A stretch of DNA of 60,660 bases, taken from the NCBI GenBank assembly GCA_964441335.1, contig CAYTUI010000002.1, forward strand, positions 1 through 60,660, read 5' to 3'. Of the stretch, positions 11,268 through 37,000 are shown one piece after another. Both the position numbers and the translations under genes were made by a program. How positions within the stretch are numbered: position 1 is the first letter of the stretch; the number at the start of each line of letters is the position of its first letter. The stretch comes from an uncultured Gammaproteobacteria bacterium (GTDB lineage Bacteria > Patescibacteriota > Patescibacteriia > UBA1558 > 2-01-FULL-52-15). Below the pieces are notes generated by a model. It was not told where the DNA came from. It did not search any database and saw only the letters and a program-made list of their open reading frames with translations.

Positions 11268-11747
11268 TTGTCAATTGTTAAAAAAAATTGGTCAAAGATT
11301 GAAAAAAAATATTTTAAAGCTTTGGTAGAAGTAACCAATAAACCAATTTATACCGACAAATTTAATTGTTCACTGACGACATTTGGTATGTGTCCATATG
11401 ACGTCAAGAAAAGTTGGTTTATGGTCAGCACCAGATATGATTTTTCTTATCAGCTGACGGTTATCGCCCATGAAATTATGCACCTACAGTTTATACGTCA
11501 GTATTATCAAGATTGCCGAAAAAAGGGTTTGTCCAGAAGTCAGTTTGAAGATTTGAAAGAAGCCTTAACTGTGTTGCTTAATACCAAACCATTTTCTGCA
11601 TTTTTGATAGCTGAAGATAAGGGATATGTTAGGCATCAACAATTGAGGCGATATATATTGAAGGTTTGGAGTAAGGATCAAGATTTTGAAAATTTGCTTA
11701 ATCAATCAATAAAATTTATATTAAAGAATAATCAATCAAACATATGA
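11268..11747 (+). CDS. hypothetical HExxH-motif protein
   Basis: HEIMH is the only recognisable motif; TTG start; the same frame is open back to ATG 11043 except for one TAG; stop overlaps the RHS start (ATGA). Confidence 0.55.
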   Translation: MSIVKKNWSKIEKKYFKALVEVTNKPIYTDKFNCSLTTFGMCPYDVKKSWFMVSTRYDFSYQLTVIAHEIMHLQFIRQYYQDCRKKGLSRSQFEDLKEALTVLLNTKPFSAFLIAEDKGYVRHQQLRRYILKVWSKDQDFENLLNQSIKFILKNNQSNI

Positions 11748-14700: not shown

Positions 14701-17700
14701 AGCTCGAGGCGGTTCCGGTGGAGGAATAATAATTTTGAATACTAAAAATTTAACAGTTAACGGAGAGATTAACGCTGACGGTAACGGGGGAGAGAGTTGG
14801 ACATCAACTGGTTACCAAAATAGTGGTGGCGCTGGCGGTGGTTCTGGCGGTTCTATCTATATCAGAGTGGCAGAGACAGCCAATATTGGAACTAATATGG
14901 TTCACGCGCGCGGTGGCGCCGGTGGTCTTGGCGCTTATGGTAATGACGGCGGAGACGGTTCTATCGGACGAATCCGGATTGAAGCGCCAACTATCGTCGG
15001 ATCCACAGATCCTGCCTATTTTTCACTTGGTTCTGTCGGTTATACTGTTGACGGGAACCCCGCGGATTCACAGTTAAGAGTAATTGAATCTGATTATCAG
15101 ACCGCTATAAATTCAGGTACTGCTTTGGATGATTCCTACTTCTTTCACGGCTTAAAATCCCGGGACAGAGAGTTTGATGTTGATGGCAATCAGCTGACTC
15201 AAAATAATTATAGCTACCAGTTAAATAATGTGGGTCAAAGTAGAAAATCTGCTTTATTAGATCTAAAGGCGAGCACAATTATTGACGAAGGTCAAAATTA
15301 TAGCAACGGCCAGCAATTTGATTATGATTTAAATAATGGCAATGTGCTCAATCAGGAAGACTTGGGTCATGTGCAAGTTAATATTAGTTCAGGACAAATA
15401 ACTGATCCTCTACTCGGTGACGAAAAAACCACAACTTATTCTTACGCCCTAAACGCCGATAAACATATTCTCGGCGCGCCTAAGACTAAAGTTGTTTCAG
15501 GTTTGTCGGAAACCAAAGATCAGGACTATTACTATGATCAGCTACCGCTCGGGCAAGTGAATAAAGTTAATCTGACGAAAGAGGATACTAAAGTGAACGG
15601 TGTTGATGTGGAAACTACCTATAATAGTTTGGGTTTGCCGGTAACCAAGAAAGATCCCAAGGAAAATACAGTGGTTACTTTAGCTTATGATAGCGCGAAT
15701 CTTTATCCGCAGACTTCCACCGATGTTAACGGCAGAATTACTACTACTGAATATGACCCAGTGACCGGACAATTACTGCATTCTACAGATCCTAACGGTT
15801 ATCAGGAAGCAAATGGCTATGACGCTTTTGGTCGGCCAATTTTGAAACAAGTTTCTGACCCAAATAATCCGGCTAATTTAATTACTGTTCAGGAAATCAG
15901 TTATGAAGATGTGGCTTTCCCCAACTATAAGGAAGTTAAGGATTATTTTAACTCAAGTCAGTATGTTACCAGCCGTGAATACTATGACGGGCTGGGTAGA
16001 GTTATCCAAAGCAAAAAGTCAGATGCCAGCGGACAGTATGTGACTGTGGCAATGGAATACGACAGTCAGGGTAGAGTTAAAAAACAATCTTTGCCGTATT
16101 TCAGCGGTTCAATCGCTTATTCGGCTCCGGTTTTCACTTATTCAAAGCAGTATACTTATGACGTTTTAGATCGGGTACTGACAGAAATTACACCAGTCGG
16201 CACAACTACTTATTCGTATGACGGTTTTACCACCACCATTACCGATCCGCGCGGCAAGGTTAAGGAATTGACCAAAGACGCCTATGACAATCTGGTTCAG
16301 GTTAAAGAGCATGAAGGAGCCGCAATTTATACGACTAATTATGAATATACCTTGACTAATAAACTGAAGAAAATTACTGACGCTCAAGGCAATGTTAGAA
16401 ATTTTGTTTATGACGATTTGGATAATCTAGCATCGCAGGACATGGTGCATAAAACATCAGTGGCCGACCCTGTTGACTGGGTTTATACCTATGATAACAA
16501 TGGCAACGTTTTAACCAAAACTGATCCCCGCAGTCAGGCGACTGATTATAGTTATGACAGTTTGAACAGAATTTTAACTGAAGACTTTAGCGGCACCAGC
16601 GGAGTGGAATATGATTATAATTACGATGAAGGATTGGGTCAGCTTAACAGATTAAGCAGTGTTATTGGCAATAACGACAGCGCTACTTATTATACTTATG
16701 ATTATGCCGGCAGGCCGACTCTGGTTCATCGGGTAATTGACGGTTTAAACTTTGATTTACAGTTCGCCTATAATATCAGGGGAGATGTCAGTTCAATTAC
16801 TTACTCTGAAAGACAGCGAGTGATTTATTCTTTCAATAACGGCGGACAAGTTAATCAGGTTGATTTAATTGATGACGGGGTGACTACAACTTTGGCAACC
16901 AATATTCAGTATTCGTTGACCGGCTTGATCAGTCATTTGGAACGGGGCAATGGTGTTACCACTGATTATACCTATGACCCGGCTCAAGGTTATCGCTTAA
17001 CTCATTTGGTGAGTCAGTTGGGAAGCGCAAAATTACAGGATATTAGTTATACTTATGATTCCAACGGCAATATTTTAACGCTGACTGATAATTCTAATAC
17101 TGATTTGGCTAAGACCGTGACCTACAATTACGACGACTTGAATCGTTTGGTTTCAGCTACTGTAACTAATGCCACAAGCGGTAATAATTATTCCCATACT
17201 TACAGCTACGACGCTATCGGTAATATGTTATCTAATAGCGCGGTTGGGCAATATACCTATAACAAAGACAATCCGCATCAGGCCGGACAAATTGGGGCAG
17301 ATTATTATACCTATGACGCCAACGGCAATGTTCGTTATATCAATAATGACCTTCATGAATGGGATTGGCGCGACAGAATGACCAAATCGCGTTTAGGCAA
17401 TAACGATTCTACTTATTATGTCTATGACCATAATAATCAGCGGTTGAAGAAATGGACGGATGTCACACCTCCGCCACCACCTCCGCCGCCTGTTCCTTGT
17501 CGCGGTAACTGCCCGAAACCTATTTTTGAGGGTTCTGTGGACGTCGGCTTTGAAGCTACTACAACCGAGGAGATCATAGAGGGGGAATTGGAGATGGGAG
17601 ATGGGGAAGAGGGAAGTGAGGATTCGGGAACTGGGGCTGGTGAAGCGGAAATTGGTAAGCAACCGGTTGAGGAAGTTCAACTATTGGATGGTTCGGCTGA

Positions 17701-18841
17701 CTTGAGTCAGGCCGGAATAGTTAGGATGGCATCTGTTCCGGAGGTTGATGATATTGCTGACTATTATATAGATAAATACTACGAATCGCGGTATAATGGA
17801 TCTGCCAGAAACCACTATTTCTTAGGCAATATCCGTCTAGCTTCAGAAAAGCTGTCTGGCGATAACGCCGGAATATACTACATTTTGTCTGATCACCTAG
17901 GCTCCAGTTCTCTGACAACTAACGCCACCGGTACAGTGATAGCTCTGACAGACTATTATCCTTACGGATCAGAAAGCTATAATAATACTACGACCGATAT
18001 TGGAGACGATTACACCTTTACCGGTAAAGAGTTAGACGAAGAATCTAATCTCCAGTACTTTGGTGCAAGGTATTATGATCAAGAGAGCGGGAGATGGATA
18101 AGCATTGATCCTTATGGATTAGACTTAGATCGTCTCATGGAAATTATATCAAGTCCTCAGCAGTTCAATGGCTATTTATATAGTATGGGAAATCCTGTAA
18201 TTCTAGTTGACCCCGATGGTAATAGATCAGATGAACCATGGGATGTATGGAATTGGGCTCCAGGGTTTAAGCAGTTTGCCGATGCTTTTGACAGACATCC
18301 GAATGAAACAACCAACATCTCGTCAAGCTTAGTACCAGGATATGGAGATGTACAAGATGCTAAAGAAGCCTTCACTGGTAAGGAAACTTTCACTGGTAGG
18401 GATCTTAGTACCGGAGAGAGGGTTATATCGGGAGCCGCCGCTTTTATACCTATAGTTAGTGGATCTGTGATAAGGTCAGGGGTTAAAGCTGTAAAAGGTG
18501 CGATTAAATTATCTGATGAGGTCTTTAGTTTATCGCCCCAGGTCACTAGGGGAGTTCAGAGGTATTGGGCGAAATCTAATTATGATGATACTTTGAGCAG
18601 TTTCGGGGATCATTTTGCAAGACACGGTGCCGGTAGAACCCCGGAACAGTATTTAGATGATGGGGTAGATTTTTACAAGGATTACAAAGACTTTGGTAAG
18701 AGTCACCATATTTATTCCACAAATGAATATGGTATAAAAATCAGTAATAAAGACCTGAACTACTACGGCATTTATACTACATATGGAAGGGCGGTTACTC
18801 ATGGACCGATTGATGAGAGTAAATCATTTCTTAATTACTAA
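11744..18841 (+). CDS. RHS/YD-repeat polymorphic toxin with SpvB-like and FG-GAP/VCBS-like N-terminal regions
   Basis: N-terminal signal/TM. SpvB-like FSGAFAYSYPVSLPAGRAGLQPQVSLNYN...GFGWELS. Five DxNxDGxxD repeats. Many YD repeats (YDAFGRP, YYDGLGRV, YDSQGRV, YDALGN-type). RHS core end YFGARYYDQESGRWISIDPYGL ... NPVILVDPDGN, followed by a variable C-terminus. Confidence 0.93.
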   Translation: MKKRDLYRGIYTLVVTAMVIMPLTPVLAAPRPIAVISDNPVSQVAQPEVVAPEVEAVPAEISTEPAQPADDAALIDMGLQAEETPPLEQTSGGGDSPLDPYANRDNAGAKPTKLLGEHNVDEFSGAFAYSYPVSLPAGRAGLQPQVSLNYNHQRQNVGSMVGFGWELSMSSIERDGRTGLDKLYTDNNFRLNLNGNHELVAIDVDSNGYGLYGKRIESDFLKIEYSSVNKWLVTDKTGMVYTFGSQATSRQDNPSDSTKVYRWMLEEIRDTNDNFVRYEYFKDFGQIYPKKIFYTGSGTTDGTFEVWFEPFASGSQTENNLVSISETAGFTVQTKYLLDKIDVYADGVKSRSDDLNFGLNDSGKKYLLNSITPKAYKDAQEYSKDTVNFDYSYEVASFTPSGDYQLPSGYELYLQPGLGSSRRAMFIDLNLDGYADYINMTCNSSAVTVNVFNNNTTGGWNDVSNYDTSFVFSGCSHSTTIPATFAEMNGDHYIDLVTNSGYYPNTGSGWGSLVAGSLPASLLQSTTSNKPINSLIFTDLNRDGYDDAYYNHSTSSLDSAVTAYIKNKTTGVWTQDNDYNISLQLDYADCFRYGGTPFGFADVNNDGSEDVFYDYYCHPEQHTTYSGEVVYLNNGTSLALSADYAAPANMSWYSISAYNGQNISFLSDFNRDGLQDKGGYSRDQWVDGTGPHSSGGMSLLGVSVFDTVTFDGYSYFTNAVPVAVVDLNGDQAQDAIHSYSGDGDRIYYGQGIKNDILTNIDGQSGASVRVAYGNSSQEKDSTGSLLNPNLPFDTQIVKEVVVNDGQENLTGQSYTYSDGSVASYTNENIKDVYGFGKVTKKIGQALVDVDLGDGSDGSFNSNMDYIFTADKDFTYFTVNSGHKVTIQPGVKVKVQGTATINGSLFAKGTGYPEQAGPGAGADGQMSTYGPSGGGGGAGFVFNGESSGGYEGQYIVSGGVAYGNSELEPALRGSGGGKGGYKQGEAIARGGSGGGIIILNTKNLTVNGEINADGNGGESWTSTGYQNSGGAGGGSGGSIYIRVAETANIGTNMVHARGGAGGLGAYGNDGGDGSIGRIRIEAPTIVGSTDPAYFSLGSVGYTVDGNPADSQLRVIESDYQTAINSGTALDDSYFFHGLKSRDREFDVDGNQLTQNNYSYQLNNVGQSRKSALLDLKASTIIDEGQNYSNGQQFDYDLNNGNVLNQEDLGHVQVNISSGQITDPLLGDEKTTTYSYALNADKHILGAPKTKVVSGLSETKDQDYYYDQLPLGQVNKVNLTKEDTKVNGVDVETTYNSLGLPVTKKDPKENTVVTLAYDSANLYPQTSTDVNGRITTTEYDPVTGQLLHSTDPNGYQEANGYDAFGRPILKQVSDPNNPANLITVQEISYEDVAFPNYKEVKDYFNSSQYVTSREYYDGLGRVIQSKKSDASGQYVTVAMEYDSQGRVKKQSLPYFSGSIAYSAPVFTYSKQYTYDVLDRVLTEITPVGTTTYSYDGFTTTITDPRGKVKELTKDAYDNLVQVKEHEGAAIYTTNYEYTLTNKLKKITDAQGNVRNFVYDDLDNLASQDMVHKTSVADPVDWVYTYDNNGNVLTKTDPRSQATDYSYDSLNRILTEDFSGTSGVEYDYNYDEGLGQLNRLSSVIGNNDSATYYTYDYAGRPTLVHRVIDGLNFDLQFAYNIRGDVSSITYSERQRVIYSFNNGGQVNQVDLIDDGVTTTLATNIQYSLTGLISHLERGNGVTTDYTYDPAQGYRLTHLVSQLGSAKLQDISYTYDSNGNILTLTDNSNTDLAKTVTYNYDDLNRLVSATVTNATSGNNYSHTYSYDAIGNMLSNSAVGQYTYNKDNPHQAGQIGADYYTYDANGNVRYINNDLHEWDWRDRMTKSRLGNNDSTYYVYDHNNQRLKKWTDVTPPPPPPPPVPCRGNCPKPIFEGSVDVGFEATTTEEIIEGELEMGDGEEGSEDSGTGAGEAEIGKQPVEEVQLLDGSADLSQAGIVRMASVPEVDDIADYYIDKYYESRYNGSARNHYFLGNIRLASEKLSGDNAGIYYILSDHLGSSSLTTNATGTVIALTDYYPYGSESYNNTTTDIGDDYTFTGKELDEESNLQYFGARYYDQESGRWISIDPYGLDLDRLMEIISSPQQFNGYLYSMGNPVILVDPDGNRSDEPWDVWNWAPGFKQFADAFDRHPNETTNISSSLVPGYGDVQDAKEAFTGKETFTGRDLSTGERVISGAAAFIPIVSGSVIRSGVKAVKGAIKLSDEVFSLSPQVTRGVQRYWAKSNYDDTLSSFGDHFARHGAGRTPEQYLDDGVDFYKDYKDFGKSHHIYSTNEYGIKISNKDLNYYGIYTTYGRAVTHGPIDESKSFLNY

Positions 18842-18842
18842 T

Positions 18843-19160
18843 ATGAAAAAAAATAGAGAAACAATAGATAAACTGGTTCAATCCTTAAGGAGACCATTCC
18901 CCGCAGAGTTGCCAGGAACTGACTCGAAAGCAGATTTTGATCTCGAGGATGGTAGAATTGCGGGCTTGGCCTCTAAATTCCTCAAAGGAAAGAGAATAGA
19001 CATTATCAAGCCATTTGATCCTGTTCTTAAGGCGATCATTATTAACTATGTGCCAGAGGATAAACACGCAGTTCGGGCATATAATGAAAGTCTACGAAGG
19101 ATAAGTGAGTTAGAGGAGATTGTGAATCTCGTGAATCAAGAATTAGGAAATTGTTTTTGA
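18843..19160 (+). CDS. candidate cognate immunity protein of the RHS toxin
   Basis: 105-aa ORF starting 1 nt after the RHS stop; assignment by position only, no motif recognised. Confidence 0.5.
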   Translation: MKKNRETIDKLVQSLRRPFPAELPGTDSKADFDLEDGRIAGLASKFLKGKRIDIIKPFDPVLKAIIINYVPEDKHAVRAYNESLRRISELEEIVNLVNQELGNCF

Positions 19161-20234: not shown

Positions 20235-21287
20235 ATGATGATAAAAAGGATGTTTCCGATTCTGCTAATGGCAGTTTTCGGATTTTTATTTGTGTCGTCT
20301 GTTCAGGCAGAGGAGACGACTTATCCGGCGGGGTCGTTACTTGCTTTGAATAAAACAGGATCAGCAGTTTATTACATTGGTGAGGATGCAAGGAAATATA
20401 TTTTTCCCGAGGAGAAGACCTACTTTACTTGGTATGATGATTTTTCTAAAGTAATTAAAGTAGACCCAATTGAGCTGGATAAATATGAAGATGGCGGAAT
20501 TATGCCCTATAGGCCGGGTGTTTTGCTTATAACCCATCCCAATACCAACAATGTATATGCGGTAGAACCGAATGGTTTGTTGAGAAAAATTGTTTCAGAG
20601 GAAGCCGCCAAGAATTTATATGGTGAAAATTGGGCGTCAACTGTTCGGGATGTTATACCCGGGTATTTTGCATCAACGTATAAAATGGGGTCTGACCTGT
20701 CAGATAAGTTGCCCAATGGCACTTTGGTAAAAGAACAAGGCAAAGATGATATATATTATGTTTATGACGGCAGTAGAAGAAAGTTTTATGACGCTACGGC
20801 TTTTGATGAGAACGGATTTAGGCAAAAAGATATTATGACTGTGGCTAGCTTAGCCAAGTATGAATACGGGAGAACCATAAAAGGTAAGGAAGAAAATTTG
20901 TCCCACTTCACGAAAGACAAGGCATTCAAATATTCAAATATGGAATTGTATTACACGATTAATAGTGACTTTGGCGGAAGTATCGCGATTGTATTTCCTA
21001 CCTCAACAAAACCTTTTGAAGTAAGAAATGTTCTCATCAAAGGAGCCGGAAATTTGAGGCTTGATTATAAAAGTAATCAATATGCTTTAAAGGAAGGAGA
21101 AACCTCCTATTTCACCTTATATTATCAGGCACCGTTCGTGGTAGACATGAGCGAGTCATACATGAAAGTTGTTAGCAATAATTTTAGATCGGAGACGCCT
21201 ATTGAAATAGATCTTAGAGATTGGGTTTTGTGGGATATAGCTGAAGATAAACAAATAATCAATATACACGGTCAGACTTTTAAATAA
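20235..21287 (+). CDS. secreted/surface protein sharing its N-terminal module with the 1240-aa surface protein
   Basis: Signal peptide; about 190 aa (AVYYIGEDARKYIFP...TYFTWY...YRPG...VYAVEPNG...VIPGYF) parallel the N-terminus of the 56784-60506 product. Confidence 0.7.
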   Translation: MMIKRMFPILLMAVFGFLFVSSVQAEETTYPAGSLLALNKTGSAVYYIGEDARKYIFPEEKTYFTWYDDFSKVIKVDPIELDKYEDGGIMPYRPGVLLITHPNTNNVYAVEPNGLLRKIVSEEAAKNLYGENWASTVRDVIPGYFASTYKMGSDLSDKLPNGTLVKEQGKDDIYYVYDGSRRKFYDATAFDENGFRQKDIMTVASLAKYEYGRTIKGKEENLSHFTKDKAFKYSNMELYYTINSDFGGSIAIVFPTSTKPFEVRNVLIKGAGNLRLDYKSNQYALKEGETSYFTLYYQAPFVVDMSESYMKVVSNNFRSETPIEIDLRDWVLWDIAEDKQIINIHGQTFK

Positions 21288-21305
21288 ATTAGAATTATCA
21301 GAAAT

Positions 21306-21345
21306 AAAAATCCTCGCCTAATCAACTTGGATTTTTTTGTTTTTT
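21306..21345 (+). terminator. AT-rich intrinsic terminator
   Basis: AAAAATCC-15 nt-GGATTTTT followed by a T-run. Confidence 0.45.
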
Positions 21346-21417
21346 TAACCTTGACACATTGTAATATTTATGCTAGAATTGTGGATAATTTAATCGCTTT
21401 AATTATAAGCAAAAACT

Positions 21418-22629
21418 ATGAAAAATAGATTAATAATCGGGTCAATTGCAGTATTAATGATTGTCCCGTTTTTGAGTTTTAATTATGCTAGCGCTAATTC
21501 TGCCAGCGGTACGCCCTTTGAGATGATTTGGCAGGCACTTGAAAAATTAACCGGTAAAGTGGATAGCCATGAGGAGCGTATTACCGCCTTGGAGCAAAAA
21601 TTGGCGTTAATGGAAAATCCAGGCACCTTAACTGTGGCCAACAGCAATTCTATCCCCGCCCAAAATATTAGCGTCGGTAATGACGTCGTCTTGGGAGGTT
21701 TTGAATTTACTGCCAGCAATGAACCGATTAATGTGACTGACTTGACTTTAACTATTATTTCCAACTTCAATACTACTACCGCTGATGCTCTGAATTCCGT
21801 CAAAATAGTTGACGTTACCAACTCTACAGTTGCCGGACCGGCAGATTTATCAGGCAACACCTCGCAGGTAAATTTTACAGATCCATTCATTGTACCTGTG
21901 GGAGTAAATAATTATCGGATTGTTGCGAACTTAAATACTAATGGTGTCTGGCAGGATAACGACAAAATTTATGTTCAATTAGCAACTCCACAGTCGGCTA
22001 TTATTGCTCAAGGTGCAATTAGCGGCCAAAATATTTTAGTGCAACCAAATGCTAACGTTAAGGCCAATACTCAAACTATTAAGTTGGCTAAATTAATGAT
22101 TACCAGAAATACTTTACCGGCCGCTATGAATATTGTCCCCGGTACACAGGATTTGGGCTTAAGCGGTTGGAATTTTAGCGCAGCCAACTCAGCCGAAGAT
22201 GTTAGAGTAACGGCAATTTTATTTGCCGCCAATTCTTCCGATGTTAATAACTTAACGGTTAAAGTTGATGGTGTTATTAAAACTCCAGTGATGTCAGCTC
22301 CGCCAGTGGGGGATAATCAGACTACAACTTTTGCTTTTGACGAGCCCATAATAATTCCTAAAGGTACTTCCAAAAATATTTTACTGGAAGGCGATGTCAG
22401 TTTTGATGCGGTTATTGGTAATAGGATCCAGTTCGGTTTAACCGACTCTTCCGTAAAAAATAATAATTCGGTTATCGCTTATGGTGTATCTAACGGTAAT
22501 CGCGTTGATATAAATTTAGTTTCTGACGATGGTCCGTTTATGACAATTGTCAGCCCTGACTTTGTTAGAAATATAGCAGGCGCGATCGGTATCCAGCCAA
22601 TTAATCCAGACCTGCAAATTACCAGATAA
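21418..22629 (+). CDS. surface protein sharing a central module with the 1240-aa surface protein
   Basis: Signal anchor, coiled coil, then about 260 aa parallel to roughly residues 565-825 of the 56784-60506 product (LTVKVDG, TTFAFD, KGTSK, QFGLTD). Confidence 0.7.
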   Translation: MKNRLIIGSIAVLMIVPFLSFNYASANSASGTPFEMIWQALEKLTGKVDSHEERITALEQKLALMENPGTLTVANSNSIPAQNISVGNDVVLGGFEFTASNEPINVTDLTLTIISNFNTTTADALNSVKIVDVTNSTVAGPADLSGNTSQVNFTDPFIVPVGVNNYRIVANLNTNGVWQDNDKIYVQLATPQSAIIAQGAISGQNILVQPNANVKANTQTIKLAKLMITRNTLPAAMNIVPGTQDLGLSGWNFSAANSAEDVRVTAILFAANSSDVNNLTVKVDGVIKTPVMSAPPVGDNQTTTFAFDEPIIIPKGTSKNILLEGDVSFDAVIGNRIQFGLTDSSVKNNNSVIAYGVSNGNRVDINLVSDDGPFMTIVSPDFVRNIAGAIGIQPINPDLQITR

Positions 22630-22641
22630 ATTCTTAATTAA

Positions 22642-22680
22642 AACAAAGCCCCGAATTTAAATCAGGGCTTTGTTTTTTGT
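22642..22680 (+). terminator. intrinsic terminator
   Basis: AACAAAGCCC-loop-GGGCTTTGTT followed by a T-run. Confidence 0.7.
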
Positions 22681-22695
22681 TTTACTCTCCAAGTC

Positions 22696-22724
22696 TTGAC
22701 CCCATCCAAAATCTATGCTGATAT
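22696..22724 (+). promoter_or_regulatory. putative promoter of the GC-rich 162-aa gene
   Basis: TTGACC at 22696-22701; a weak -10 (TGATAT/GATATA) lies 17-18 nt downstream. Confidence 0.35.
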
Positions 22725-22759
22725 AGAGATGTTTTTCGTACCCTAACAGAGGAGGGCTG

Positions 22760-23248
22760 ATGGAAGGTAGCGGCAGGATTCCTAATCCGTTCACGACAGT
22801 GACGGCGACCCTGAATTACGAGGATTTGCCGGATTGGCTGAACGATTTTCTGGAGGGTAGGCCCAATAGAACAGTCGAGTTGGGTAAGCCGGTGGAAGTG
22901 CCTGCGGGGTCGCGGCCGGTTGATTTCTTGCTTCAGAGCTATGGCAAGCGCGAAAGTCGCTCGTCAAATCTGTTGCGGCAGGCGGCCATTCAGCTCCTGC
23001 AGATGTTGGTTTCCGGCGGTACGCTTGACGGTAGTAAGAAGTGGGATCAGCTGGTGGAAGACTTGGTGGTGCTGATCCGTGATCTGCCAGGAGATCATCA
23101 TCGGCAGAATCGCGAGGTGTATGTTGAGCTGGCTGCATCGTTGCGGGCAAGGGACAACGGACAACAGCTGGCGAACAACTTCGCTCTGGTTCTTTACCGC
23201 TTGGATTTCCTGCGAGAACGTCAGGTTCTGCTGGAAGGTCTGGCCTGA
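22760..23248 (+). CDS. hypothetical protein (162 aa), GC-rich orphan
   Basis: AGAGGAGGG SD 5 nt before the ATG; globular composition, unlike the overlapping alternative-frame ORFs. Confidence 0.6.
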   Translation: MEGSGRIPNPFTTVTATLNYEDLPDWLNDFLEGRPNRTVELGKPVEVPAGSRPVDFLLQSYGKRESRSSNLLRQAAIQLLQMLVSGGTLDGSKKWDQLVEDLVVLIRDLPGDHHRQNREVYVELAASLRARDNGQQLANNFALVLYRLDFLRERQVLLEGLA

Positions 23249-23254
23249 ACGAAG

Positions 23255-23290
23255 AAGCCCCACGTTGCTTGTGAGCGACGTGGGGCTTTT
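23255..23290. terminator. bidirectional terminator between convergent GC-rich genes
   Basis: AAGCCCCACGT-12 nt-ACGTGGGGCTT, a perfect 11-bp stem, with TTTT on the plus strand and TTCTTC on the minus strand. Confidence 0.7.
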
Positions 23291-23310
23291 CATATTGGCG
23301 ACCATGTTGG

Positions 23311-23655
23311 TCAGGGCTCGTGGGATCTGTCAATCAGATCGTTGAAGCTGTAAACACCGGTGTGGTCGTGGCTGACCTGTTTGTTCTCCAGTGATTTGTG
23401 CAACAGGTCGTTGTCAGCGGTCAGATGTCTGATCTGGTCTTCTTGTCGGTGGCTTCTTCTAACCGTCAGCTGGTCGAAGACAATCAGGAAGATGGCTAGA
23501 CCGATAAAGAACAGGCGGACTAGGATCCTGGCTGTCGTTGTTGATGTCACCCCGGTCAAATCCTGTGTCAGAGTCAGAGAGTTATCCGGCAAGTCCCAGG
23601 CCTGACCGGCGATCACCAGCAGAGCCATCACAACCATGTAGAGAACCATGCGCAT
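23311..23655 (-). CDS. hypothetical two-TM membrane protein (114 aa), GC-rich orphan
   Basis: Two hydrophobic helices then a charged tail; AGAAGGAGG SD; own consensus promoter. Confidence 0.6.
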   Translation of the reverse strand: MRMVLYMVVMALLVIAGQAWDLPDNSLTLTQDLTGVTSTTTARILVRLFFIGLAIFLIVFDQLTVRRSHRQEDQIRHLTADNDLLHKSLENKQVSHDHTGVYSFNDLIDRSHEP

Positions 23656-23706
23656 AGTTAGCCTCCTTCTGGCTGGTGTTTTCTAGCTTCTCGCTTGTCA
23701 AGCAGG

Positions 23707-23735
23707 ATTATAGAAAGATAATTTGTTTATGTCAA
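23707..23735 (-). promoter_or_regulatory. consensus sigma70 promoter (TTGACA-17-TATAAT)
   Basis: Minus strand: TTGACA (23735-23730), a 17-nt spacer, TATAAT (23712-23707). Confidence 0.7.
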
Positions 23736-23800
23736 ATAGCTTGACTAATAGCTAGTCAGATAGGACTAAACTTGTTATAATTGAGTCGATAAAAGTAATT

Positions 23801-24184
23801 ATGGCCAAGAAAATTGTTACTAATTCTGTTATTATCTTTTTTGTCTTTGTTTTTATGTTTGTGGCTATACTATTCTATTTTTTTCCTGAATCATTCAGCC
23901 CCGGCAGTAACGCCAAAATAGGAGATGTTTTGCGTTGTCAGTCAGCTAAAATTAGTGACAATTTAGGTCAGGCTAATATTAATAAGGGTCGTAATTTAGA
24001 ATTACTGGTTAGTTTTAAAAATAAGCCAACCGACGCGCAATTATCTATTTGGGAAGATAGAGGAGTGAAACTTTATCCGGACTCCTGGATATTTAACTAT
24101 TTGGTAGCTGAAAGTGGTTATGAGAATTTGTGTGCCTTGGTAGCCGCCGATGAAGTAACTTACATTGATATTGTCAATAAGTAA
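23801..24184 (+). CDS. hypothetical membrane-anchored protein
   Basis: N-terminal hydrophobic helix; stop overlaps the pgk start. Confidence 0.5.
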   Translation: MAKKIVTNSVIIFFVFVFMFVAILFYFFPESFSPGSNAKIGDVLRCQSAKISDNLGQANINKGRNLELLVSFKNKPTDAQLSIWEDRGVKLYPDSWIFNYLVAESGYENLCALVAADEVTYIDIVNK

Positions 24185-25344
24185 TGAAATTGCGGGTTAT
24201 AAAAAAAATAGCCGAACTAAAAGGCCGCCGGGTTTTGTTAAGGTTGGATTTAAACGCGCCTTTAACTAAGGGTCATTTGGAGCAGTCTGATCTTTGGAAG
24301 TTGAGATCATCTTTGGGCACTTTAGAAACTTTAATTGAACACGGCGCCAGAATTATTATTATTGCGCATTTTGGCAGGCCGGACGGAAAAAAAGATCCTA
24401 AACTTAGCCTACGGCCGGTTATTAAGAAATTTAGTCAGATGATTGGCCAGAAGATAGAGATTTGGGATGATAGTTTGATTAGTTGTCAGAAGAAAAGTTT
24501 AAAACTTACCGACGGTCAGGTGGTCTGTCTGGAAAACATCAGGTTTCATAAAGGCGAGCAGACCTGTAACTCTAAGTTTTCTAAACAGCTGGCGGCTTTG
24601 GGTGACGTCTTTATTAATGACGCTTTTGGTGATGTCGGCGGTAAGTATGCTTCTAACGTCGGTGTAACTAAGTATTTGCCCAGCTATGCCGGCCGATTGA
24701 TGGATTATGAGGTACAGCACTTGTCGCAATTATTTAAAAAAGCTAAACGCCCGATTGTGGCTATCATGGGCGGCAGTAAGATTTCCACAAAGATTATTTT
24801 AATCAGGCAGTTATTGGAGAAAGTAAATTTTGTACTACTTGGCGGAGCTTTGGCCAATAATGTATTGAGAGCTCAAAAAATTGAAGTTGGCCGATCTTTA
24901 GTGGACAATAAAGTTTTAAGGCTGGATAATTATATTCTTAGTAATAAATTGAAATTGCCGGTGGATGCTAGGGTTAGCACCTCTTATAAAGCCAAAGCCC
25001 GTCTGACGGCTATCGGAAATGTGGGGAAAAACGAACTGATTCTGGATTTGGGACCTGATACTGTCAATCTTTATGGTAATATTATTACAAAGGCTAAAAC
25101 CATCATTTGGAACGGGCCACTAGGATACTTTGAAGATCCACGTTACGCAGTTAGTACCACTGAAACAGCCAGAAAAATTGCCACGGCCAGAGCCAGAGAA
25201 TATGTCGGCGGCGGTGAAACGGTTAAAGCTATATTAAAGAACAGATTGGAAGATAAAATGTTTTTCGTTTCTTCTGGCGGTGGCGCCATGCTAGCCTTGT
25301 TAGAAGGCAAAAAGCTCCCCGCTTTGGAGGTTTTAAAAATATAA
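24184..25344 (+). CDS. pgk: phosphoglycerate kinase
   Basis: RVLLRLDLNAPL N-terminus, IIAHFGRP and GGGAMLA-type C-terminal hinge motifs; typical length. Confidence 0.95.
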   Translation: MKLRVIKKIAELKGRRVLLRLDLNAPLTKGHLEQSDLWKLRSSLGTLETLIEHGARIIIIAHFGRPDGKKDPKLSLRPVIKKFSQMIGQKIEIWDDSLISCQKKSLKLTDGQVVCLENIRFHKGEQTCNSKFSKQLAALGDVFINDAFGDVGGKYASNVGVTKYLPSYAGRLMDYEVQHLSQLFKKAKRPIVAIMGGSKISTKIILIRQLLEKVNFVLLGGALANNVLRAQKIEVGRSLVDNKVLRLDNYILSNKLKLPVDARVSTSYKAKARLTAIGNVGKNELILDLGPDTVNLYGNIITKAKTIIWNGPLGYFEDPRYAVSTTETARKIATARAREYVGGGETVKAILKNRLEDKMFFVSSGGGAMLALLEGKKLPALEVLKI

Positions 25345-25380
25345 ATTTAATAATAATTAATTGTGCGCTCCTAGTCATTA

Positions 25381-25415
25381 GCTATTTGCTACCGGCTACA
25401 GGCCACAAGCCAACA
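25381..25415 (+). repeat. degenerate 7-nt tandem array
   Basis: gctattt gctaccg gctacag gccacaa gccaaca, ending 5 nt before the ATG. Confidence 0.7.
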
Positions 25416-25420
25416 AACGT

Positions 25421-26194
25421 ATGCTAGAAAAATTACAGCAACATGGTAAAGAGGCCGCCGGTCTTTTTGCTATTATGCTCTTAACCGCCAGTTTCTTTTT
25501 AGTCACTGCCGGTATTAATAAAATCAAAGAGTTTCGTTATATTGGTCAAGCTCCTGACTATTCTAATAATATTGTGATGACCGGTCAGGGTAAAGTGGTA
25601 GCCGTGCCGGATATAATTAAATTAACTTTTGGCTATACTATTACCAAACCAAAAGTAGCCGACGCGCAGAAATTAACCGTGGACAAAATGAACGCTTTTA
25701 TGGAAGTCCTAAAGAATAAAGGTGTGGACAGTAAAGACATTAGGACAATAAATTATTCTATCAACCCCCAATATGATTACGCTAACGGCGTTCAGCAGTT
25801 AAATGGTTACAATGTTTCCCAAAACGTTGAAGTTAAACTTCGCGACATGGATTTAGCCAGCAGTATTTTAGCGCTTGCAGGCGATAATGAGTTAAATCAA
25901 GTCGGTAGTTTAGAGTTTACTTTTGATGACCAGGAAAAGTTTCTGCAGGAAGCGCGCGTTAAGGCGATAAAGAACGCCAAGGAAAAGGCTGAAACTTTAG
26001 CTAAGGAAGCCGGCGTACATCTGGGGCGTATTATTAGTATCAACGAAAATTCTTACCCGGGACCAGTTTATCCTATGTATTATGATAAAGCTGTTTCGGG
26101 CTTGGGTGGTGGTGATTCGGCTCCGGCTCCGGAAATATCTGCTGGTAGCAGTGAATTGGTGGTTGATATTAGTTTGACATACGAATTGCTCTAG
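25421..26194 (+). CDS. SIMPL/DUF541-family secreted protein
   Basis: N-terminal TM and a sequence pattern typical of 26-kDa periplasmic immunogenic protein homologues. Confidence 0.7.
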   Translation: MLEKLQQHGKEAAGLFAIMLLTASFFLVTAGINKIKEFRYIGQAPDYSNNIVMTGQGKVVAVPDIIKLTFGYTITKPKVADAQKLTVDKMNAFMEVLKNKGVDSKDIRTINYSINPQYDYANGVQQLNGYNVSQNVEVKLRDMDLASSILALAGDNELNQVGSLEFTFDDQEKFLQEARVKAIKNAKEKAETLAKEAGVHLGRIISINENSYPGPVYPMYYDKAVSGLGGGDSAPAPEISAGSSELVVDISLTYELL

Positions 26195-26195: not shown

Positions 26196-27467
26196 ATGAT
26201 TAAAGACGTTATTAAGAAGGTTTCAGCTGAAGAAATATTGGATTCCCGCGGGGAGCCGACTGTGGAAGTAACAGTGGAACTGCAAAGCGGTTTGGCTGCT
26301 AAAGCCTCGGTTCCCTCGGGTGCTTCAACCGGAGCCTTTGAAGCTCATGAATTGCGCGATCAGGACCCTAACCGTTATAACGGCAAGGGCGTTCTTAAGG
26401 CTGTGGCCAATGTTAATCAGCAGATTGACAAAGCCTTGAGAGATTTAGAAATAACCAGTCAGCAAAAGATTGATTCGGTCATGATTGAAATTGACGGTAC
26501 TGAAAATAAATCCAATCTGGGAGCTAATGCGATTTTGGGAGTTTCTATGGCGGTCGCTCGGACTGCCAGCAAGTCATTGGGTTTACCTCTTTATGAATAT
26601 TTGGGCAGCTTATTTGGTAAAAAGGAATATTCTCTGCCTATACCGTTGGTTAATCTGATTAACGGTGGTAAGCATGCCAGCACCAACCTTAATATGCAGG
26701 AGTTTTGGGTCATACCGACCGGCCAGAGGACTTTTCATGAAAGACTAAGATGTGCCACGGAAATTTTCCAGGTCTTGGGGCAATTATTAAGGAACGATAA
26801 GAAAGATACTGACGTCGGTAATGAAGGCGGATATGCTCCTGACTTTAAGAGTCATAAAGAAGCTCTGGATTATTTAGTCAGGGCGGTTGAAGGAGCAAAA
26901 TATAAATTAGGTGCGGATGTTTTTCTAGGATTGGATGTGGCGGCTTCCGAATTTTTTAATGCTGATAGAAATATTTATCGGTTGGAACTGGAAGGTAGTG
27001 ATTTTACTTCCACGGAGTTTACTAATTACATGTTGGGTTTGGCCAAAAGTTATTCATTGGCAGCCGTGGAAGATCCGTTAGCCGAAGAGGATTGGTTAAG
27101 TTGGGTGAGTTTAACGGCAGAGATGAAAAAGTATGATCCGAATTTAAGAATTATCGGCGACGATATTTTTGCCACCAACTCCAAAAGATTTCAGAAAGGT
27201 ATTGATATGGGTGTAGCTAATTCCATTTTGATTAAGCTTAATCAAATTGGAACTGTCAGTGAAACTTTGGACACAATTAGATTGGCCAAGAAGCACGGCT
27301 ATAAGACAGCAATCTCACATCGCAGTGGCGAAACAGTGGATACTTTTATCGCCGACTTAGCCGTGGCAGTCGGCTCGGAGTTTATTAAAACCGGCTCTGT
27401 GGCGCGTGGTGAGCGTACCGCTAAGTATAATCGTCTGCTAAATATTGAATCAGAATTTAATGTCTAA
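26196..27467 (+). CDS. eno: enolase
   Basis: SVPSGASTGAFEAHELRD, IKLNQIGT and SHRSGET motifs. Confidence 0.97.
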   Translation: MIKDVIKKVSAEEILDSRGEPTVEVTVELQSGLAAKASVPSGASTGAFEAHELRDQDPNRYNGKGVLKAVANVNQQIDKALRDLEITSQQKIDSVMIEIDGTENKSNLGANAILGVSMAVARTASKSLGLPLYEYLGSLFGKKEYSLPIPLVNLINGGKHASTNLNMQEFWVIPTGQRTFHERLRCATEIFQVLGQLLRNDKKDTDVGNEGGYAPDFKSHKEALDYLVRAVEGAKYKLGADVFLGLDVAASEFFNADRNIYRLELEGSDFTSTEFTNYMLGLAKSYSLAAVEDPLAEEDWLSWVSLTAEMKKYDPNLRIIGDDIFATNSKRFQKGIDMGVANSILIKLNQIGTVSETLDTIRLAKKHGYKTAISHRSGETVDTFIADLAVAVGSEFIKTGSVARGERTAKYNRLLNIESEFNV

Positions 27468-29016
27468 AAAACCGCTGATAGTTTTATGTATATTGGACGG
27501 CTGGGGGATAGGAGCGGCAAATTATGGCAACGCAATTACACAGGCCAAACTGCCATTCTATCAATCTTTCCTCAAGAAATACGCCCACACAGAACTGGAG
27601 GCTTCATCTAAGTATGTCGGTCTGCCCTTAAGACAGTCTGGAAATTCTGAAGCTGGGCACATGAATATTGGAGCCGGTCGTATTGTGGAGCAGGACGCGG
27701 TAGTAATTTCCCGTAGTATTAATGACGGAACATTTTTTCGTAACCCGGCTTTTTTACAAGCCGCCAGACATGCTAAAGAACATAATACCGATGTGCATCT
27801 AGTAGGATTGTTGACTGGTAATCAAAGCGCTCATTCTGATCCTGACCATTTGATTTCTTTGATAACATTATTCAAACATCAGAACATTAAGAATGTTTAT
27901 CTACATTTGTTTACTGACGGCCGCGATAGTCCTCGGTTTTATGCCCAGAAATTAATTAAGAAATACAGCGGTTTTTTCAGTAAGTATGCCCAAGTGGCCA
28001 CGATTATGGGGCGCTTTTACGGTATGGACAGAAAGAAGGAATGGTCGCGAACAGAGCTGGCATATAACGCTATGATTTTTGGTGAGGGCGTAAAAGACGA
28101 TAGCTCCGAAGACGCCATATTACACGCTTACGCCAGGGATGAAAGTGATGAGTTTATCAAGCCGACAATTATATGCGACAAGAACGGTAAACCTAGGGGT
28201 GTAATCAAAGATAATGACGCTGTGGTATTTTTTAATTTACGTTCGGACAGAGCCAGACAGATGTGTAAACCATTCGTTCAAAAAAGATTTGAAGATTTAA
28301 ATGCGGGCGCCTTTAAGCGCCGCAAGATAATGCAAGGCTTGTATTTAGTTGCCATGACTGATTTTGGACCTGATTTGGGGGACATTGTTACGGCTTACCC
28401 CAGTCGCGATATAACCGATACTTTACAGATGGTTTTGCATAATTATCGGCAGATGGTAATTGCTGAAAACGAAAAGTACGCTCATGTGACATATTTTTTG
28501 AACGGCGGTTATTCTGATCCTGTGGCGGGAGAAAAAAGGATTATAGTGGATTCGCCGGATCTTAAGATGTATGATAAAGAGCCGCAGATGAGTGTTCAAA
28601 AGACTTCAGCCTTGGTTGTAGATGCGATTAAAAATAATCAATACGATTTTATTGTTATGAACATAGCCAACCCTGACATGGTTGCCCATACGGGAAATCT
28701 TTTCGCCACTATTAAGGCTTGTGAATTTACTGATGTTGCCTTGGGAGCTATTAGTCAGGCGGTACTGAATAAAAAAGGTATTCTGATTGTGACTGCTGAT
28801 CACGGTAATGCTGAGGAGCTTGTTAATAAAAATACTGGCTGGCCGGATACAGAACATAGCACTAGTCGCGTGCCCTTTATTATTGTTAAGAATGGTTCCA
28901 GGCCGCAGCTTAGGAAAAAGGGAATATTGGGAGACATCGCTCCGACTATTTTGGATTTGCTCCGCGAAAATAAACCCAAGCTCATGACCGGTAAAAGTTT
29001 GATAATAAAAAAATAG
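27460..29016 (+). CDS. gpmI: 2,3-bisphosphoglycerate-independent phosphoglycerate mutase, copy 1 (divergent)
   Basis: LDGWG, GNSEAGH, TDGRD, YAHVTYFLNGG, NPDMVAHTG and ADHGNAE; the ATG at 27460 overlaps eno by 8 nt. Confidence 0.9.
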   Translation: MSKKPLIVLCILDGWGIGAANYGNAITQAKLPFYQSFLKKYAHTELEASSKYVGLPLRQSGNSEAGHMNIGAGRIVEQDAVVISRSINDGTFFRNPAFLQAARHAKEHNTDVHLVGLLTGNQSAHSDPDHLISLITLFKHQNIKNVYLHLFTDGRDSPRFYAQKLIKKYSGFFSKYAQVATIMGRFYGMDRKKEWSRTELAYNAMIFGEGVKDDSSEDAILHAYARDESDEFIKPTIICDKNGKPRGVIKDNDAVVFFNLRSDRARQMCKPFVQKRFEDLNAGAFKRRKIMQGLYLVAMTDFGPDLGDIVTAYPSRDITDTLQMVLHNYRQMVIAENEKYAHVTYFLNGGYSDPVAGEKRIIVDSPDLKMYDKEPQMSVQKTSALVVDAIKNNQYDFIVMNIANPDMVAHTGNLFATIKACEFTDVALGAISQAVLNKKGILIVTADHGNAEELVNKNTGWPDTEHSTSRVPFIIVKNGSRPQLRKKGILGDIAPTILDLLRENKPKLMTGKSLIIKK

Positions 29017-30606
29017 ATGTTAGGAGAAAGTAAACCAAGACCAAAGCCGGCCGTTCTGCTAATTTTGGACGGCTGGGGAATAGCGCCAGCTTCCAGGGCG
29101 AATGCTATTTCAACAGCCAAAATGCCTAATATTTCCAAATATATGACTACTTATCCAACTATGGCTTTGCAGGCAGCTGGAGAGTCGGTTGGCCTTAGCT
29201 GGGGCGAAATTGGCAATTCCGAGGTGGGTCATTTATCTATGGGCTCCGGCAAGATTCTGTTCCAGAGTTTACCCCGCATCAATAGAGCAATTTTTGACGG
29301 TGGTTTTTTCAAGAATGAAGCTTTGGTGGCGGCAGTTGAACATGCCAAAAAAAATAAAACCAGCCTACATTTGATGGGTTTAGTCAGCTCCGGTGGTGTT
29401 CATAGTCATAATGAGCATTTATATGCTTTGTTAGAGCTGGCGGCCGAGCATAAATTAAAGGATGTTTTTGTGCATGCTTTTTTAGATGGTCGCGACACAG
29501 TATTTAATAGTGGAGAAAAATATATTGTGGAACTTAATAAAAAGATGGAGCAGATTGGGGTTGGTAAAATAGCAACTTTAGCCGGTCGCTTTTATGCTAT
29601 GGACCGTGATAATCATTGGGAGCGGATTGCCAAAGTTTACAAGGCGATGGTTGAAGGCGAGGCCAAGGATTATTTTGAAAGTGCAGTGGATGCCATTCAC
29701 GCTTCTTATAAACTGGAGGTTTTTGATGAGCAATTGGAACCGGTTGTTATTACTGCCGGAGACAAACCGGTGGCGACAATCAAGGATAACGATGCTGTAA
29801 TATTTTTTAATTTTCGACCTGATCGGGCCAGACAAATTACCAAGTCTTTAATTCTGCCGGGCTTTAATAAATTTCCGGTCAACTATATGCAGAACATATT
29901 CTTTGTTTCTATGACCGAATACGAAAAGGATTTGCCTTTACAAGTGGCTTTTCCGCCCGAAGTAATTGACACTTCATTGGCTAAGGTTATTAGTGAAGCC
30001 GGGTTATCGCAATTGCATATTGCCGAAACTGAAAAATATGCCCATGTTACTTATTTTTTTAACGGCGGTCAGGAAAAGTCTTATCCTAAAGAAGATCACG
30101 TCTTGATTCCTTCGCCCAAAGTATCATCGTATGATCAGAAGCCGGCGATGAGCGCCAGAGAGATAACCTCGCGTGTTATTCAAGAAATTCGCGAAGTTAA
30201 ATATGATTTTATTGTGGTTAATTTTGCCAATGTGGATATGGTGGGCCATACGGGGAATCTTGCGGCCACCGTAGAGGCTTGTGAAATAATTGACGATTTA
30301 GTTGGTAAAATTGTTGAGGTAACCATGTCTTATGACGGTGCGGTTGTTATAACAGCTGATCACGGCAACGCCGAAAGTATGTTTGATTTGCAGAGCGGTG
30401 AAATGGACAAAGAACACAGTAATAATCCGGTGCCCTGCATTCTTATTAGCCGCGAGTGGGAAGGAAAAAATGTCGCCAACGGGGTCACTGGAACTGATTT
30501 GAGCACGGCTGTATCTTCCGGCATTTTAGCAGATATTGGACCAACTATAATAAAAATTTTGGGACTAAAAAAACCGTCGGAAATGACCGGTACTTCTTTA
30601 ATATAG
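29017..30606 (+). CDS. gpmI: 2,3-bisphosphoglycerate-independent phosphoglycerate mutase, copy 2
   Basis: LDGWG, GNSEVGH, GGVHSH, LDGRD, YAHVTYFFNGG, NVDMVGHTG and ADHGNAE. Confidence 0.95.
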   Translation: MLGESKPRPKPAVLLILDGWGIAPASRANAISTAKMPNISKYMTTYPTMALQAAGESVGLSWGEIGNSEVGHLSMGSGKILFQSLPRINRAIFDGGFFKNEALVAAVEHAKKNKTSLHLMGLVSSGGVHSHNEHLYALLELAAEHKLKDVFVHAFLDGRDTVFNSGEKYIVELNKKMEQIGVGKIATLAGRFYAMDRDNHWERIAKVYKAMVEGEAKDYFESAVDAIHASYKLEVFDEQLEPVVITAGDKPVATIKDNDAVIFFNFRPDRARQITKSLILPGFNKFPVNYMQNIFFVSMTEYEKDLPLQVAFPPEVIDTSLAKVISEAGLSQLHIAETEKYAHVTYFFNGGQEKSYPKEDHVLIPSPKVSSYDQKPAMSAREITSRVIQEIREVKYDFIVVNFANVDMVGHTGNLAATVEACEIIDDLVGKIVEVTMSYDGAVVITADHGNAESMFDLQSGEMDKEHSNNPVPCILISREWEGKNVANGVTGTDLSTAVSSGILADIGPTIIKILGLKKPSEMTGTSLI

Positions 30607-36099: not shown

Positions 36100-36131
36100 A
36101 TAAGTTTTTTAGATTTTTACCGACCCCTCTT

Positions 36132-36216
36132 CCTCGCCGCTCGCGAGCGGCGAGGTCCGTCCTCCCCTTAACAGGGGAGGCTCCTTTAGTTAGAGCCCCT
36201 CCTTACCAAGGAGGGG
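36132..36216. repeat. three consecutive GC-rich hairpins/palindromes
   Basis: Perfect 24-nt palindrome CCTCGCCGCTCGCGAGCGGCGAGG (36132-36155); CCTCCCC-ttaaca-GGGGAGG (36161-36180); CCCCTCC-ttaccaa-GGAGGGG (36196-36216). Confidence 0.85.
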
Positions 36217-36236
36217 TAAGGGGAGGTCAATCGTAT

Positions 36237-36276
36237 AATTAGAAAACCCGCACGTTCCACTGATGTGTACTAGTGC
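36237..36276. repeat. 40-bp perfect direct repeat, copy 1
   Basis: AATTAGAAAACCCGCACGTTCCACTGATGTGTACTAGTGC, identical to 37001-37040. Confidence 0.95.
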
Positions 36277-36973: not shown

Positions 36974-37000
36974 TATTTTGGTTGTAGTTATTTATTTGTC

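Follow-up and report, generated by a model that had tools for sequence, protein, structure and literature searches.

A GC-rich, lineage-restricted orphan islet of two convergent genes next to the pgk operon of a groundwater Patescibacteria bacterium

Morons, known from lambdoid prophages, are autonomous promoter-gene-terminator cassettes of atypical composition. Lineage-specific islets of atypical composition are also a known kind of element, and most bacterial orphan genes (ORFans) are AT-richer than their host. The genomes of Patescibacteria (candidate phyla radiation, CPR) are small and full of proteins without annotated function, and both gene acquisition in this group and its sources are poorly understood. 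Here we analyse a stretch of 60,660 nucleotides (nt) on contig CAYTUI010000002.1 of an uncultured groundwater bacterium of this group (hereafter the window; all positions are window positions), and within it an island of ~1 kb (22700-23660) that contains two convergent open reading frames (ORFs), i.e. ORF A on the plus strand and ORF B on the minus strand, with 62 nt from stop to stop. We read the island as a lineage-restricted islet that arose by horizontal transfer and consists of two moron-like, autonomously expressed cassettes placed at a variable junction, a reading to which we assign a probability of about 0.6. That the island was acquired is well supported on three independent grounds, because its composition and codon usage are foreign, it has no homologues beyond a narrow lineage, and it is missing from the same junction in ten relatives.

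The coordinates, strands and lengths that an earlier reading of this DNA (hereafter the original prediction) had given for the two genes agree exactly with the ORF list, and the pair is GC-rich as it had claimed: the guanine-plus-cytosine (GC) content of the island is 53.7%, compared with 41.0% for the whole window (z = 3.5, a value reached by 0.1% of 960-bp windows), with 55.6% in ORF A and 52.8% in ORF B. GC content at third codon positions (GC3) is 0.63 in ORF A and 0.69 in ORF B, against 0.36-0.42 in the neighbouring genes and a window mean of 0.41. Only four of the 53 ORFs in the window are GC3 outliers, namely ORF A, ORF B and both ORFs of a second islet considered below; the next highest value is 0.52. 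Relative synonymous codon usage (RSCU) of ORF A and ORF B together does not match that of the host either (r = 0.05 against the rest of the window), whereas random two-gene subsets of host genes correlate with the host at a mean of 0.67 and a minimum of 0.38. The dinucleotide distance of the island to the host is the largest among 133 windows.

A syntenic contig of 3016 bp from a different study (L001) served as the reference for identity, for the ratio of nonsynonymous to synonymous substitution rates (dN/dS) and for the conservation of signals. It is collinear with positions 22645-25617 at 81% nucleotide identity, and both ORFs are intact in it (163 and 114 amino acids, aa). ORF A shares 88% aa identity with its L001 orthologue (dN/dS 0.12) and ORF B 71% (dN/dS 0.37); for the flanking genes, dN/dS is 0.12 in C127, a small gene between ORF B and pgk, and 0.064 in pgk itself. 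ORF A and ORF B are also the only frames that are open in both the window and L001, and a 180-aa antisense ORF that overlaps ORF A in the window is broken in L001. The two dN/dS values show ORF A and ORF B to be real protein-coding genes under purifying selection. The same junction occurs in at least 15 independently assembled contigs (ENA, JGI and Logan), which come from one project and several of its groundwater samples, and since all carry the same arrangement an assembly chimera is ruled out. In addition, a 2024 groundwater run of a third study (X6) contains low-depth fragments of a third variant, which span the 5' end of ORF B and its promoter.

We searched for relatives of these proteins in profile, structure and sequence collections. 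With the profiles of Pfam, PHROGs, PADLOC and NCBIfam, hits to ORF A, ORF B and C127 did not rise above sub-threshold noise (in PADLOC, zero families at E <= 1 for all three), and a PDB sequence search with ORF A and ORF B returned nothing significant. Among 5.8 billion clustered proteins only the queries themselves were recovered, plus the L001 orthologue of ORF A, and a full phmmer search of ORF A against 1.84 billion representatives recovered only itself. Searches of phage and plasmid collections with tblastn and scans of IMG/VR viral contigs and GTDB genomes yielded nothing. Widespread homologues of the two genes, unlinked to each other, were thus not found, and the original statement that neither protein has a recognisable motif agrees with the profile and structure searches, none of which gave a significant match. 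At the level of sequence, ORF A and ORF B are strict orphans, without relatives outside one narrow lineage.

We also compared the junction with that of related genomes. The closest phosphoglycerate kinase (PGK) to that of the source organism is the one of L001 (88% identity); the others found by protein search are 53-61% identical, with 56-61% for the closest, several of which are labelled Candidatus Komeilibacteria, and scans of GTDB and JGI contigs with PGK gave at most 44% identity among the matches listed. Ten relatives from the protein search were compared (within L172-L183; PGK 53-61%), and besides L001 none of those available is closer than 61%. The block of C127 homologue, pgk, SIMPL, eno, iPGM, iPGM and fpg is kept in all ten, with 29-45% identity for C127, and ORF A and ORF B are absent from the syntenic junction in every one of them. 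At least six different neighbours lie upstream of C127 across the relatives (Table 1). Since these neighbours vary, synteny breaks off at the left edge of the pgk block, and only the lineage of the window and L001 carries the island. Presence/absence variation at the junction is seen between lineages, the pair being missing in the ten relatives; none was seen within the population, where the assembled contigs show presence rather than absence and one contig (run X1) spans the island.

On its left the island is bounded by a terminator hairpin, which belongs to the upstream 403-aa gene, and on its right by the divergent promoter of the C127-pgk operon, the -10 region of which is identical in L001. 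The original placement of the pair between an AT-rich surface-protein gene and the pgk block is correct as to position; the 403-aa gene, at 40.3% GC, is not AT-rich here, and C127 intervenes before pgk.

Both genes carry their own expression signals. ORF B has the textbook promoter and the Shine-Dalgarno (SD) sequence that had been ascribed to it: the promoter matches the consensus at every position, it is the sole TTGACA-17-TATAAT in the 60,660 bases, where 0.02 are expected by chance, and both hexamers are identical in L001, the spacer between them having diverged. The TTGACC element and the SD sequence claimed for ORF A are both present, and its -35 element and its -10 block, AAATCTATGnTGATATA, are identical in L001 with a diverged spacer around them; its -10 element is poor, and a scan for consensus promoters did not call it.

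Between the two stop codons lies a hairpin that the genes share. The perfect 11-bp GC stem of the original prediction is present and extends to 15-17 bp; the folding energy is -30.1 kcal/mol on the plus strand (z = -6.4) and -27.3 on the minus strand (z = -7.0). L001 keeps the hairpin; in the inner stem one change, from C-G to T-A, is compensatory. The role proposed for the hairpin as a shared bidirectional intrinsic terminator for ORF A and ORF B is reasonable and probable. The spacer that contains it (23249-23310) is identical to L001 at 58 of 62 positions (P about 1e-6 given the neutral rate of the island itself); if both transcripts end at the hairpin, some 38 nt of them would be complementary. 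From the hairpin to the ORF B stop codon, 22 nt (23289-23310) are invariant with respect to L001, which exceeds what a terminator alone would require.

As predicted originally, ORF B has two transmembrane (TM) segments, which hydropathy and an AlphaFold2 (AF2) model show alike, and ORF A is soluble. The TM segments of ORF B are joined by a short acidic loop and followed by a basic RRSHR stretch and then by a hydrophilic helical tail of ~50 residues, a layout that by the positive-inside rule implies an N-in/C-in topology with the acidic loop outside. The AF2 model of ORF B (predicted local distance difference test, pLDDT, 68) has helices at residues 2-21, 38-96 and 104-112, and matched zero PDB structures. 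The best profile hits of ORF B were rejected as sub-threshold noise, i.e. MscL (E = 0.012; 15.6 bits where the cut-off is 180) and also DUF2304 (E = 0.28). ORF A has no hydrophobic segment (maximum 19-residue hydropathy 1.04) and no cysteine, and its AF2 model is all-helical at low confidence (pLDDT 51). Foldseek matches of this model, all with E > 0.8 and to generic helical repeats, were dismissed as meaningless, and a blastp match of ORF A to a 125-aa ORF downstream of an Rhs toxin gene (E = 0.04) was dismissed as noise.

Together these data suggest the following picture. The island would have been inserted where synteny breaks, right in front of the conserved C127-pgk-SIMPL-eno-iPGM operon. 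Each cassette would comprise its own promoter, a strong ribosome-binding site and one ORF, and the two would face each other and share one hairpin, which most likely stops both transcripts and so would insulate them mutually and from the neighbouring operons. ORF B would be made constitutively at a high level and would sit in the cytoplasmic membrane as a helical hairpin of N-in/C-in topology, its coiled-coil tail reaching into the cytoplasm, and ORF A would be a cytoplasmic, all-helical protein. ORF A and ORF B would accordingly be separate transcription units that co-occur only as a single inherited insertion in two confirmed lineages, and their homologues were not seen together independently in any other genome. 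Of the two-gene acquired module proposed originally, acquisition is therefore retained, given composition, orphan status and absence in ten relatives, and functional coupling is not.

As to function, a protective or structural envelope factor fits ORF B better than a toxin does, because this membrane protein has a perfect constitutive promoter and SD sequence. The likeliest class for ORF B, if still a doubtful one, is that of accessory envelope proteins that are expressed constitutively and protect the cell (for example by immunity to, or exclusion of, a phage or a toxin acting on the membrane). It is unlikely that the two genes form a toxin-antitoxin or lysis pair of the classical kind.

Several observations weigh against the reading of two transferred, autonomous cassettes. 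As to the mechanism of acquisition, no direct repeats exceeding chance flank the island; no tRNA lies at it, the nearest being at 28.3 and 49.1 kb; and no integrase or transposase ORF was found within or adjoining it among the window ORFs by Pfam. No donor was found. The U-tracts of the shared hairpin are short in both directions (TTTTCATATT and CTTCTTCGTT), and a terminator scan did not list the full hairpin at 23253-23290. Three metatranscriptomes of the same study contained nothing from the organism, not even its glycolysis genes, and promoter strength, topology and genomic neighbourhood are the whole basis on which a protective role of ORF B may be proposed. Finally, the proportion of four-fold sites that differ from L001 is 32% in ORF A and ORF B against 49% in C127 and pgk (Fisher p = 0.0065), and GC at these sites is 0.59-0.70 in the window and L001 alike, despite a synonymous divergence (dS) of 0.5-0.6. 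This lower divergence and persisting GC are not predicted by a simple old acquisition followed by amelioration. The lower synonymous divergence of the island could reflect synonymous constraint, or island copies whose common ancestor is younger than that of the flanks.

The second islet, likewise GC-rich, lies at 36100-37700, 13 kb from the first, and contains two orphan ORFs, both on the minus strand (Table 1). Each of its ORFs has a TTGACA-type promoter and a GC-rich hairpin. In codon usage and dinucleotide composition this islet resembles the first (RSCU r = 0.49; dinucleotide distance delta* 0.081, which is at within-genome level) and is unlike the host. A perfect 40-nt direct repeat, AATTAGAAAACCCGCACGTTCCACTGATGTGTACTAGTGC, occurs at 36237-36276 and 37001-37040; its two copies, spaced 764 nt apart, enclose the 195-aa ORF together with the promoter of that ORF and resemble an insertion site that has been duplicated, or else the edge of a cassette.

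An analogue of ORF B is found in L179, the closest relative after L001 (61% PGK identity), where a minus-strand gene (L179:2-175) that is cut by the contig end lies directly upstream of C125-pgk. Its GC3 is 0.67 compared with 0.34-0.41 in its neighbours, and its product starts with two hydrophobic segments. Similarity of this protein to ORF B is undetectable (z = 0.4 against shuffles); position, orientation and topology are the same. These observations suggest that cassettes of the compositional class of the island insert repeatedly and may, at this junction, replace one another. A wider proposal is that the C127-pgk junction in Komeilibacteria-like Patescibacteria is a hot spot for GC-rich, promoter-equipped cassettes of small membrane proteins from a common unsampled donor pool, with ORF B, with or without ORF A, as a new family of envelope immunity/exclusion (or toxin/immunity) proteins. 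It fits because ORF B occurs here, an analogue occurs in L179 and an islet of the same signature lies 13 kb away, but we hold it to be unlikely. If it were true, these cassettes would provide factors for the survival of ultra-small and probably host-attached bacteria in the face of phages or competitors.

Next to the transfer of two cassettes, we consider that ORF A and/or ORF B might be orphan immunity genes of the variable region downstream of the Rhs toxin locus (Table 1), a place where small, fast-evolving immunity proteins exchanged by horizontal transfer would collect; ORF B, embedded in the membrane, would then guard against a toxin that acts there. As a rule, immunity proteins belong to no family and have an atypical composition, which counts for this proposal, as do the presence of the Rhs toxin gene upstream, the Rhs gene that precedes the pgk block in L172 too and the YD-shell fragments at that place in L173, the fact that it is the stretch from Rhs to C127-pgk in which the lineages differ, and the faster evolution and constitutive promoter of ORF B. 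It nevertheless seems unlikely. The Rhs gene is about 4 kb from the island, separated from it by the Band_7, 350-aa and 403-aa genes (~3.6 kb), all of host composition, and by a 125-aa candidate immunity gene. No toxin-tip fragment lies beside ORF A or ORF B, no Imm or SUKH-type family was matched in Pfam, and ORF B runs on the other strand, unlike the genes of orphan rhs-CT/immunity modules, which as a rule share one direction.

The original prediction had seen a resemblance to toxin/antitoxin (TA), abortive-infection (Abi) and holin-like pairs, which was not borne out. In a TA or Abi/defence pair, a membrane-disrupting ORF B would be controlled by ORF A, or, in a type I-like variant, the 3'-overlapping transcripts would pair. 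A small membrane protein next to a small soluble one, a foreign composition and a variable region, as is often the case for defence islands, are compatible with such a pair, and the ~38-nt complementarity of transcripts that end at the hairpin, together with the unusually conserved spacer, would suit the RNA variant. However, PADLOC, Pfam and NCBIfam gave no TA or defence match for either protein, and the genes are convergent with separate promoters instead of forming an operon as in type II TA. ORF B (114 aa) is twice the size of a typical type I toxin; the putative toxin has the perfect promoter and SD sequence and the neutraliser the weaker promoter, i.e. the reverse of the usual balance; and the strong purifying selection on ORF A as a protein implies that it is not merely an antisense RNA. 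We therefore judge a pair of this kind improbable.

It is likewise improbable that the genes are native and fast-evolving, with a high GC content kept by selection on messenger RNA structure or translation, at a junction that has long held a GC-rich gene for a small membrane protein, now diverged beyond recognition. The L179 gene, at exactly the position and in the orientation of ORF B, is what such a history would leave, and the four-fold GC shared by both lineages and the synonymous divergence below that of the flanks fit synonymous constraint. By contrast, the L179 protein is no more similar to ORF B than shuffled sequences are, and at least nine other relatives have unrelated genes of host composition at the junction. 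Codon usage is uncorrelated with that of the host, ORF A is without a counterpart among the 1.84 billion representatives, and the second, unlinked islet of the same foreign signature is more easily explained by a common donor pool.

In operons of pore-forming colicins, the immunity gene has a constitutive promoter to itself and is convergent in direction. By analogy, ORF A could be a bacteriocin and ORF B its membrane immunity protein, since the gene arrangement, the size and topology of ORF B and its constitutive promoter resemble those of such immunity genes. This is very improbable: ORF A has no hydrophobic helical hairpin, signal peptide, translocation or receptor domain, or match to a colicin or bacteriocin family, and no lysis gene lies nearby. 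Even less can be said for ORF B as a class II holin-like remnant of the lysis cassette of a degraded prophage. Two TM segments in N-in/C-in topology, a hydrophilic C-terminal tail and the Met-Arg-Met start (MRM), which is kept in L001 and recalls the dual-start motifs of holins, are in line with it, but no endolysin, spanin or other phage gene was found nearby, ORF A has no lysin domain, the PHROGs, phage and IMG/VR searches were empty, the tail of ~50 aa is longer than that of a usual class II holin and slightly acidic instead of basic, and a holin, being lethal, does not go together with a perfect constitutive promoter. That the feature is spurious is scarcely credible, for although GC-rich DNA yields long chance ORFs and an antisense ORF does overlap ORF A, both genes have a dN/dS well under 1, in L001 the antisense ORFs are interrupted and ORF A and ORF B are not, and the junctions recur in independent contigs and in a diverged lineage.

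The features of the region are collected in Table 1, which also lists the genes upstream of C127 in the relatives. Some of them deserve mention in their own right. Komeilibacteria-like genomes share C127 (125-160 aa in different genomes, with an N-terminal TM segment and without a Pfam family), and its translation is coupled to that of pgk in them. The C-terminal tip of the 2365-aa Rhs protein is unassigned, and an overlapping 125-aa ORF at 18783-19160 is a candidate immunity gene. The 350-aa and 403-aa proteins (20235-22629) look secreted and are paralogous to successive parts of a 1240-aa ORF at 56784-60506, with 39% and 47% identity, respectively; they resemble a split copy, and none of the three has a Pfam family. 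Downstream of enolase there are tandem genes for iPGM-type phosphoglycerate mutases (27445-30606; 523 and 529 aa), a duplication that is kept in the relatives. Inside the first of these genes ARAGORN calls a 94-nt 'tRNA-???' with a two-base anticodon (28277-28370), which Rfam does not confirm and which is probably a false positive. An Rfam scan of the region around the island found zero RNA families.

Table 1. Features of the island and its surroundings, followed by the genes upstream of C127 in related genomes (window positions unless a contig is named).
Feature	Location	Strand	Description
Rhs/YD-shell polymorphic-toxin gene	11744-18841		2365 aa; upstream of the island; SpvB, TcdB_toxin_midN, RHS, YD-shell and PT-TG pre-toxin domains
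Terminator hairpin of upstream 403-aa gene	22640-22677	+	-17.1 kcal/mol, then TTTTTTG; kept in L001; left border of island
ORF A promoter-like region	22696-22725	+	-35 TTGACC (22696-22701), 17-18 nt, weak -10 TGATAT/GATATA (3/6)
ORF A Shine-Dalgarno AGAGGAGGG	22748-22756	+	Purine-rich, GGAGG-type; kept in L001
ORF A	22760-23248	+	162 aa; soluble, acidic (isoelectric point 5.4), predicted all-alpha, family-less
Shared hairpin	23253-23290	both	Stem 15-17 bp, tetraloop TGTG; predicted bidirectional intrinsic terminator
ORF B	23311-23655	-	114 aa; two TM segments (about 1-21 and 43-66)
ORF B Shine-Dalgarno AGAAGGAGG	23670-23662	-	Kept in L001
ORF B promoter	23735-23707	-	TTGACA-17-TATAAT, 12/12; perfect sigma-70-type
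Divergent promoter of C127-pgk operon	23753-23781	+	TAGTCA-17-TATAAT with TG, 10/12, extended -10; outside island, right border
C127	23801-24184	+	127 aa; between ORF B and pgk, overlaps pgk start codon by one base; first gene of pgk operon
Second-islet ORF	36311-36898	-	195 aa; GC3 0.67; weak Sigma70_r4 match, E = 0.025
Second-islet ORF	37160-37684	-	174 aa; GC3 0.69
Upstream neighbour of C127	L172, L174, L177, L178		DUF2079
Upstream neighbour of C127	L173		DUF2283 beside YD-shell fragments
Upstream neighbour of C127	L175		Small orphan ORFs
Upstream neighbour of C127	L180		220-aa ORF
Upstream neighbour of C127	L182		tRNA_edit
Upstream neighbour of C127	L183		Asparaginase and 186-aa ORF

As it stands, the island is an ordinary though tidy orphan islet, and nothing supports a function in toxin-antitoxin systems or defence; ORF A and ORF B are new families only in the trivial sense of being orphans. 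The locus matters as a clean, well-bounded piece of foreign DNA in a CPR genome, ~13 GC points above its host, with consensus signals and under purifying selection. If the twin signature and the L179 analogue do reflect a common donor pool or the exchange of cassettes, they would point to a specific channel of gene flow into CPR bacteria (from a host, a phage or a plasmid) and to a new class of small envelope proteins.

Compared with described systems, the more distant likenesses are those to gene pairs. Type I and type II TA pairs also consist of two small genes, one of them for a membrane protein, and the 3' ends of the present genes could overlap; by contrast, the island has no operon and no TA family match, ORF B is too long for a type I toxin, and the promoter strengths are reversed. 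With pore-forming colicin immunity the locus shares a small membrane-protein gene that is convergent to a soluble-protein gene and has its own constitutive promoter, whereas ORF A lacks any feature of a pore-forming bacteriocin and there is neither a lysis gene nor a plasmid context. Orphan immunity genes of Rhs loci are likewise found in a variable stretch downstream of an Rhs toxin and encode small, family-less proteins, here with one constitutive promoter; unlike them, the island lies ~3.6 kb from the toxin gene with three native genes in between, has ORF B on the opposite strand, and contains no toxin-tip remnant or known immunity family.

The closest likenesses are those to morons and to ORFan genomic islets. 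Like morons, the cassettes of the island have a predicted promoter and a strong SD sequence of their own and a predicted terminator, differ in composition from their neighbours and sit between otherwise conserved genes, and a small membrane protein is common moron cargo. In contrast to morons, they lie in a bacterial chromosome beside glycolysis genes and not in a prophage, with Rhs, Band_7, secreted proteins, pgk and eno as neighbours and no PHROG or phage matches, and the two face each other and share one hairpin. With ORFan islets the island has in common strict orphans, atypical GC content and codon usage, restriction to one narrow lineage and a position at a synteny break; unlike most of them it is ~13 points richer in GC than its host, is under purifying selection and carries consensus expression signals of host type. 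The island is thus a lineage-specific islet of a known kind, and what is unusual about it is that it is GC-richer than its host, has clean consensus signals and has a compositional twin 13 kb away.

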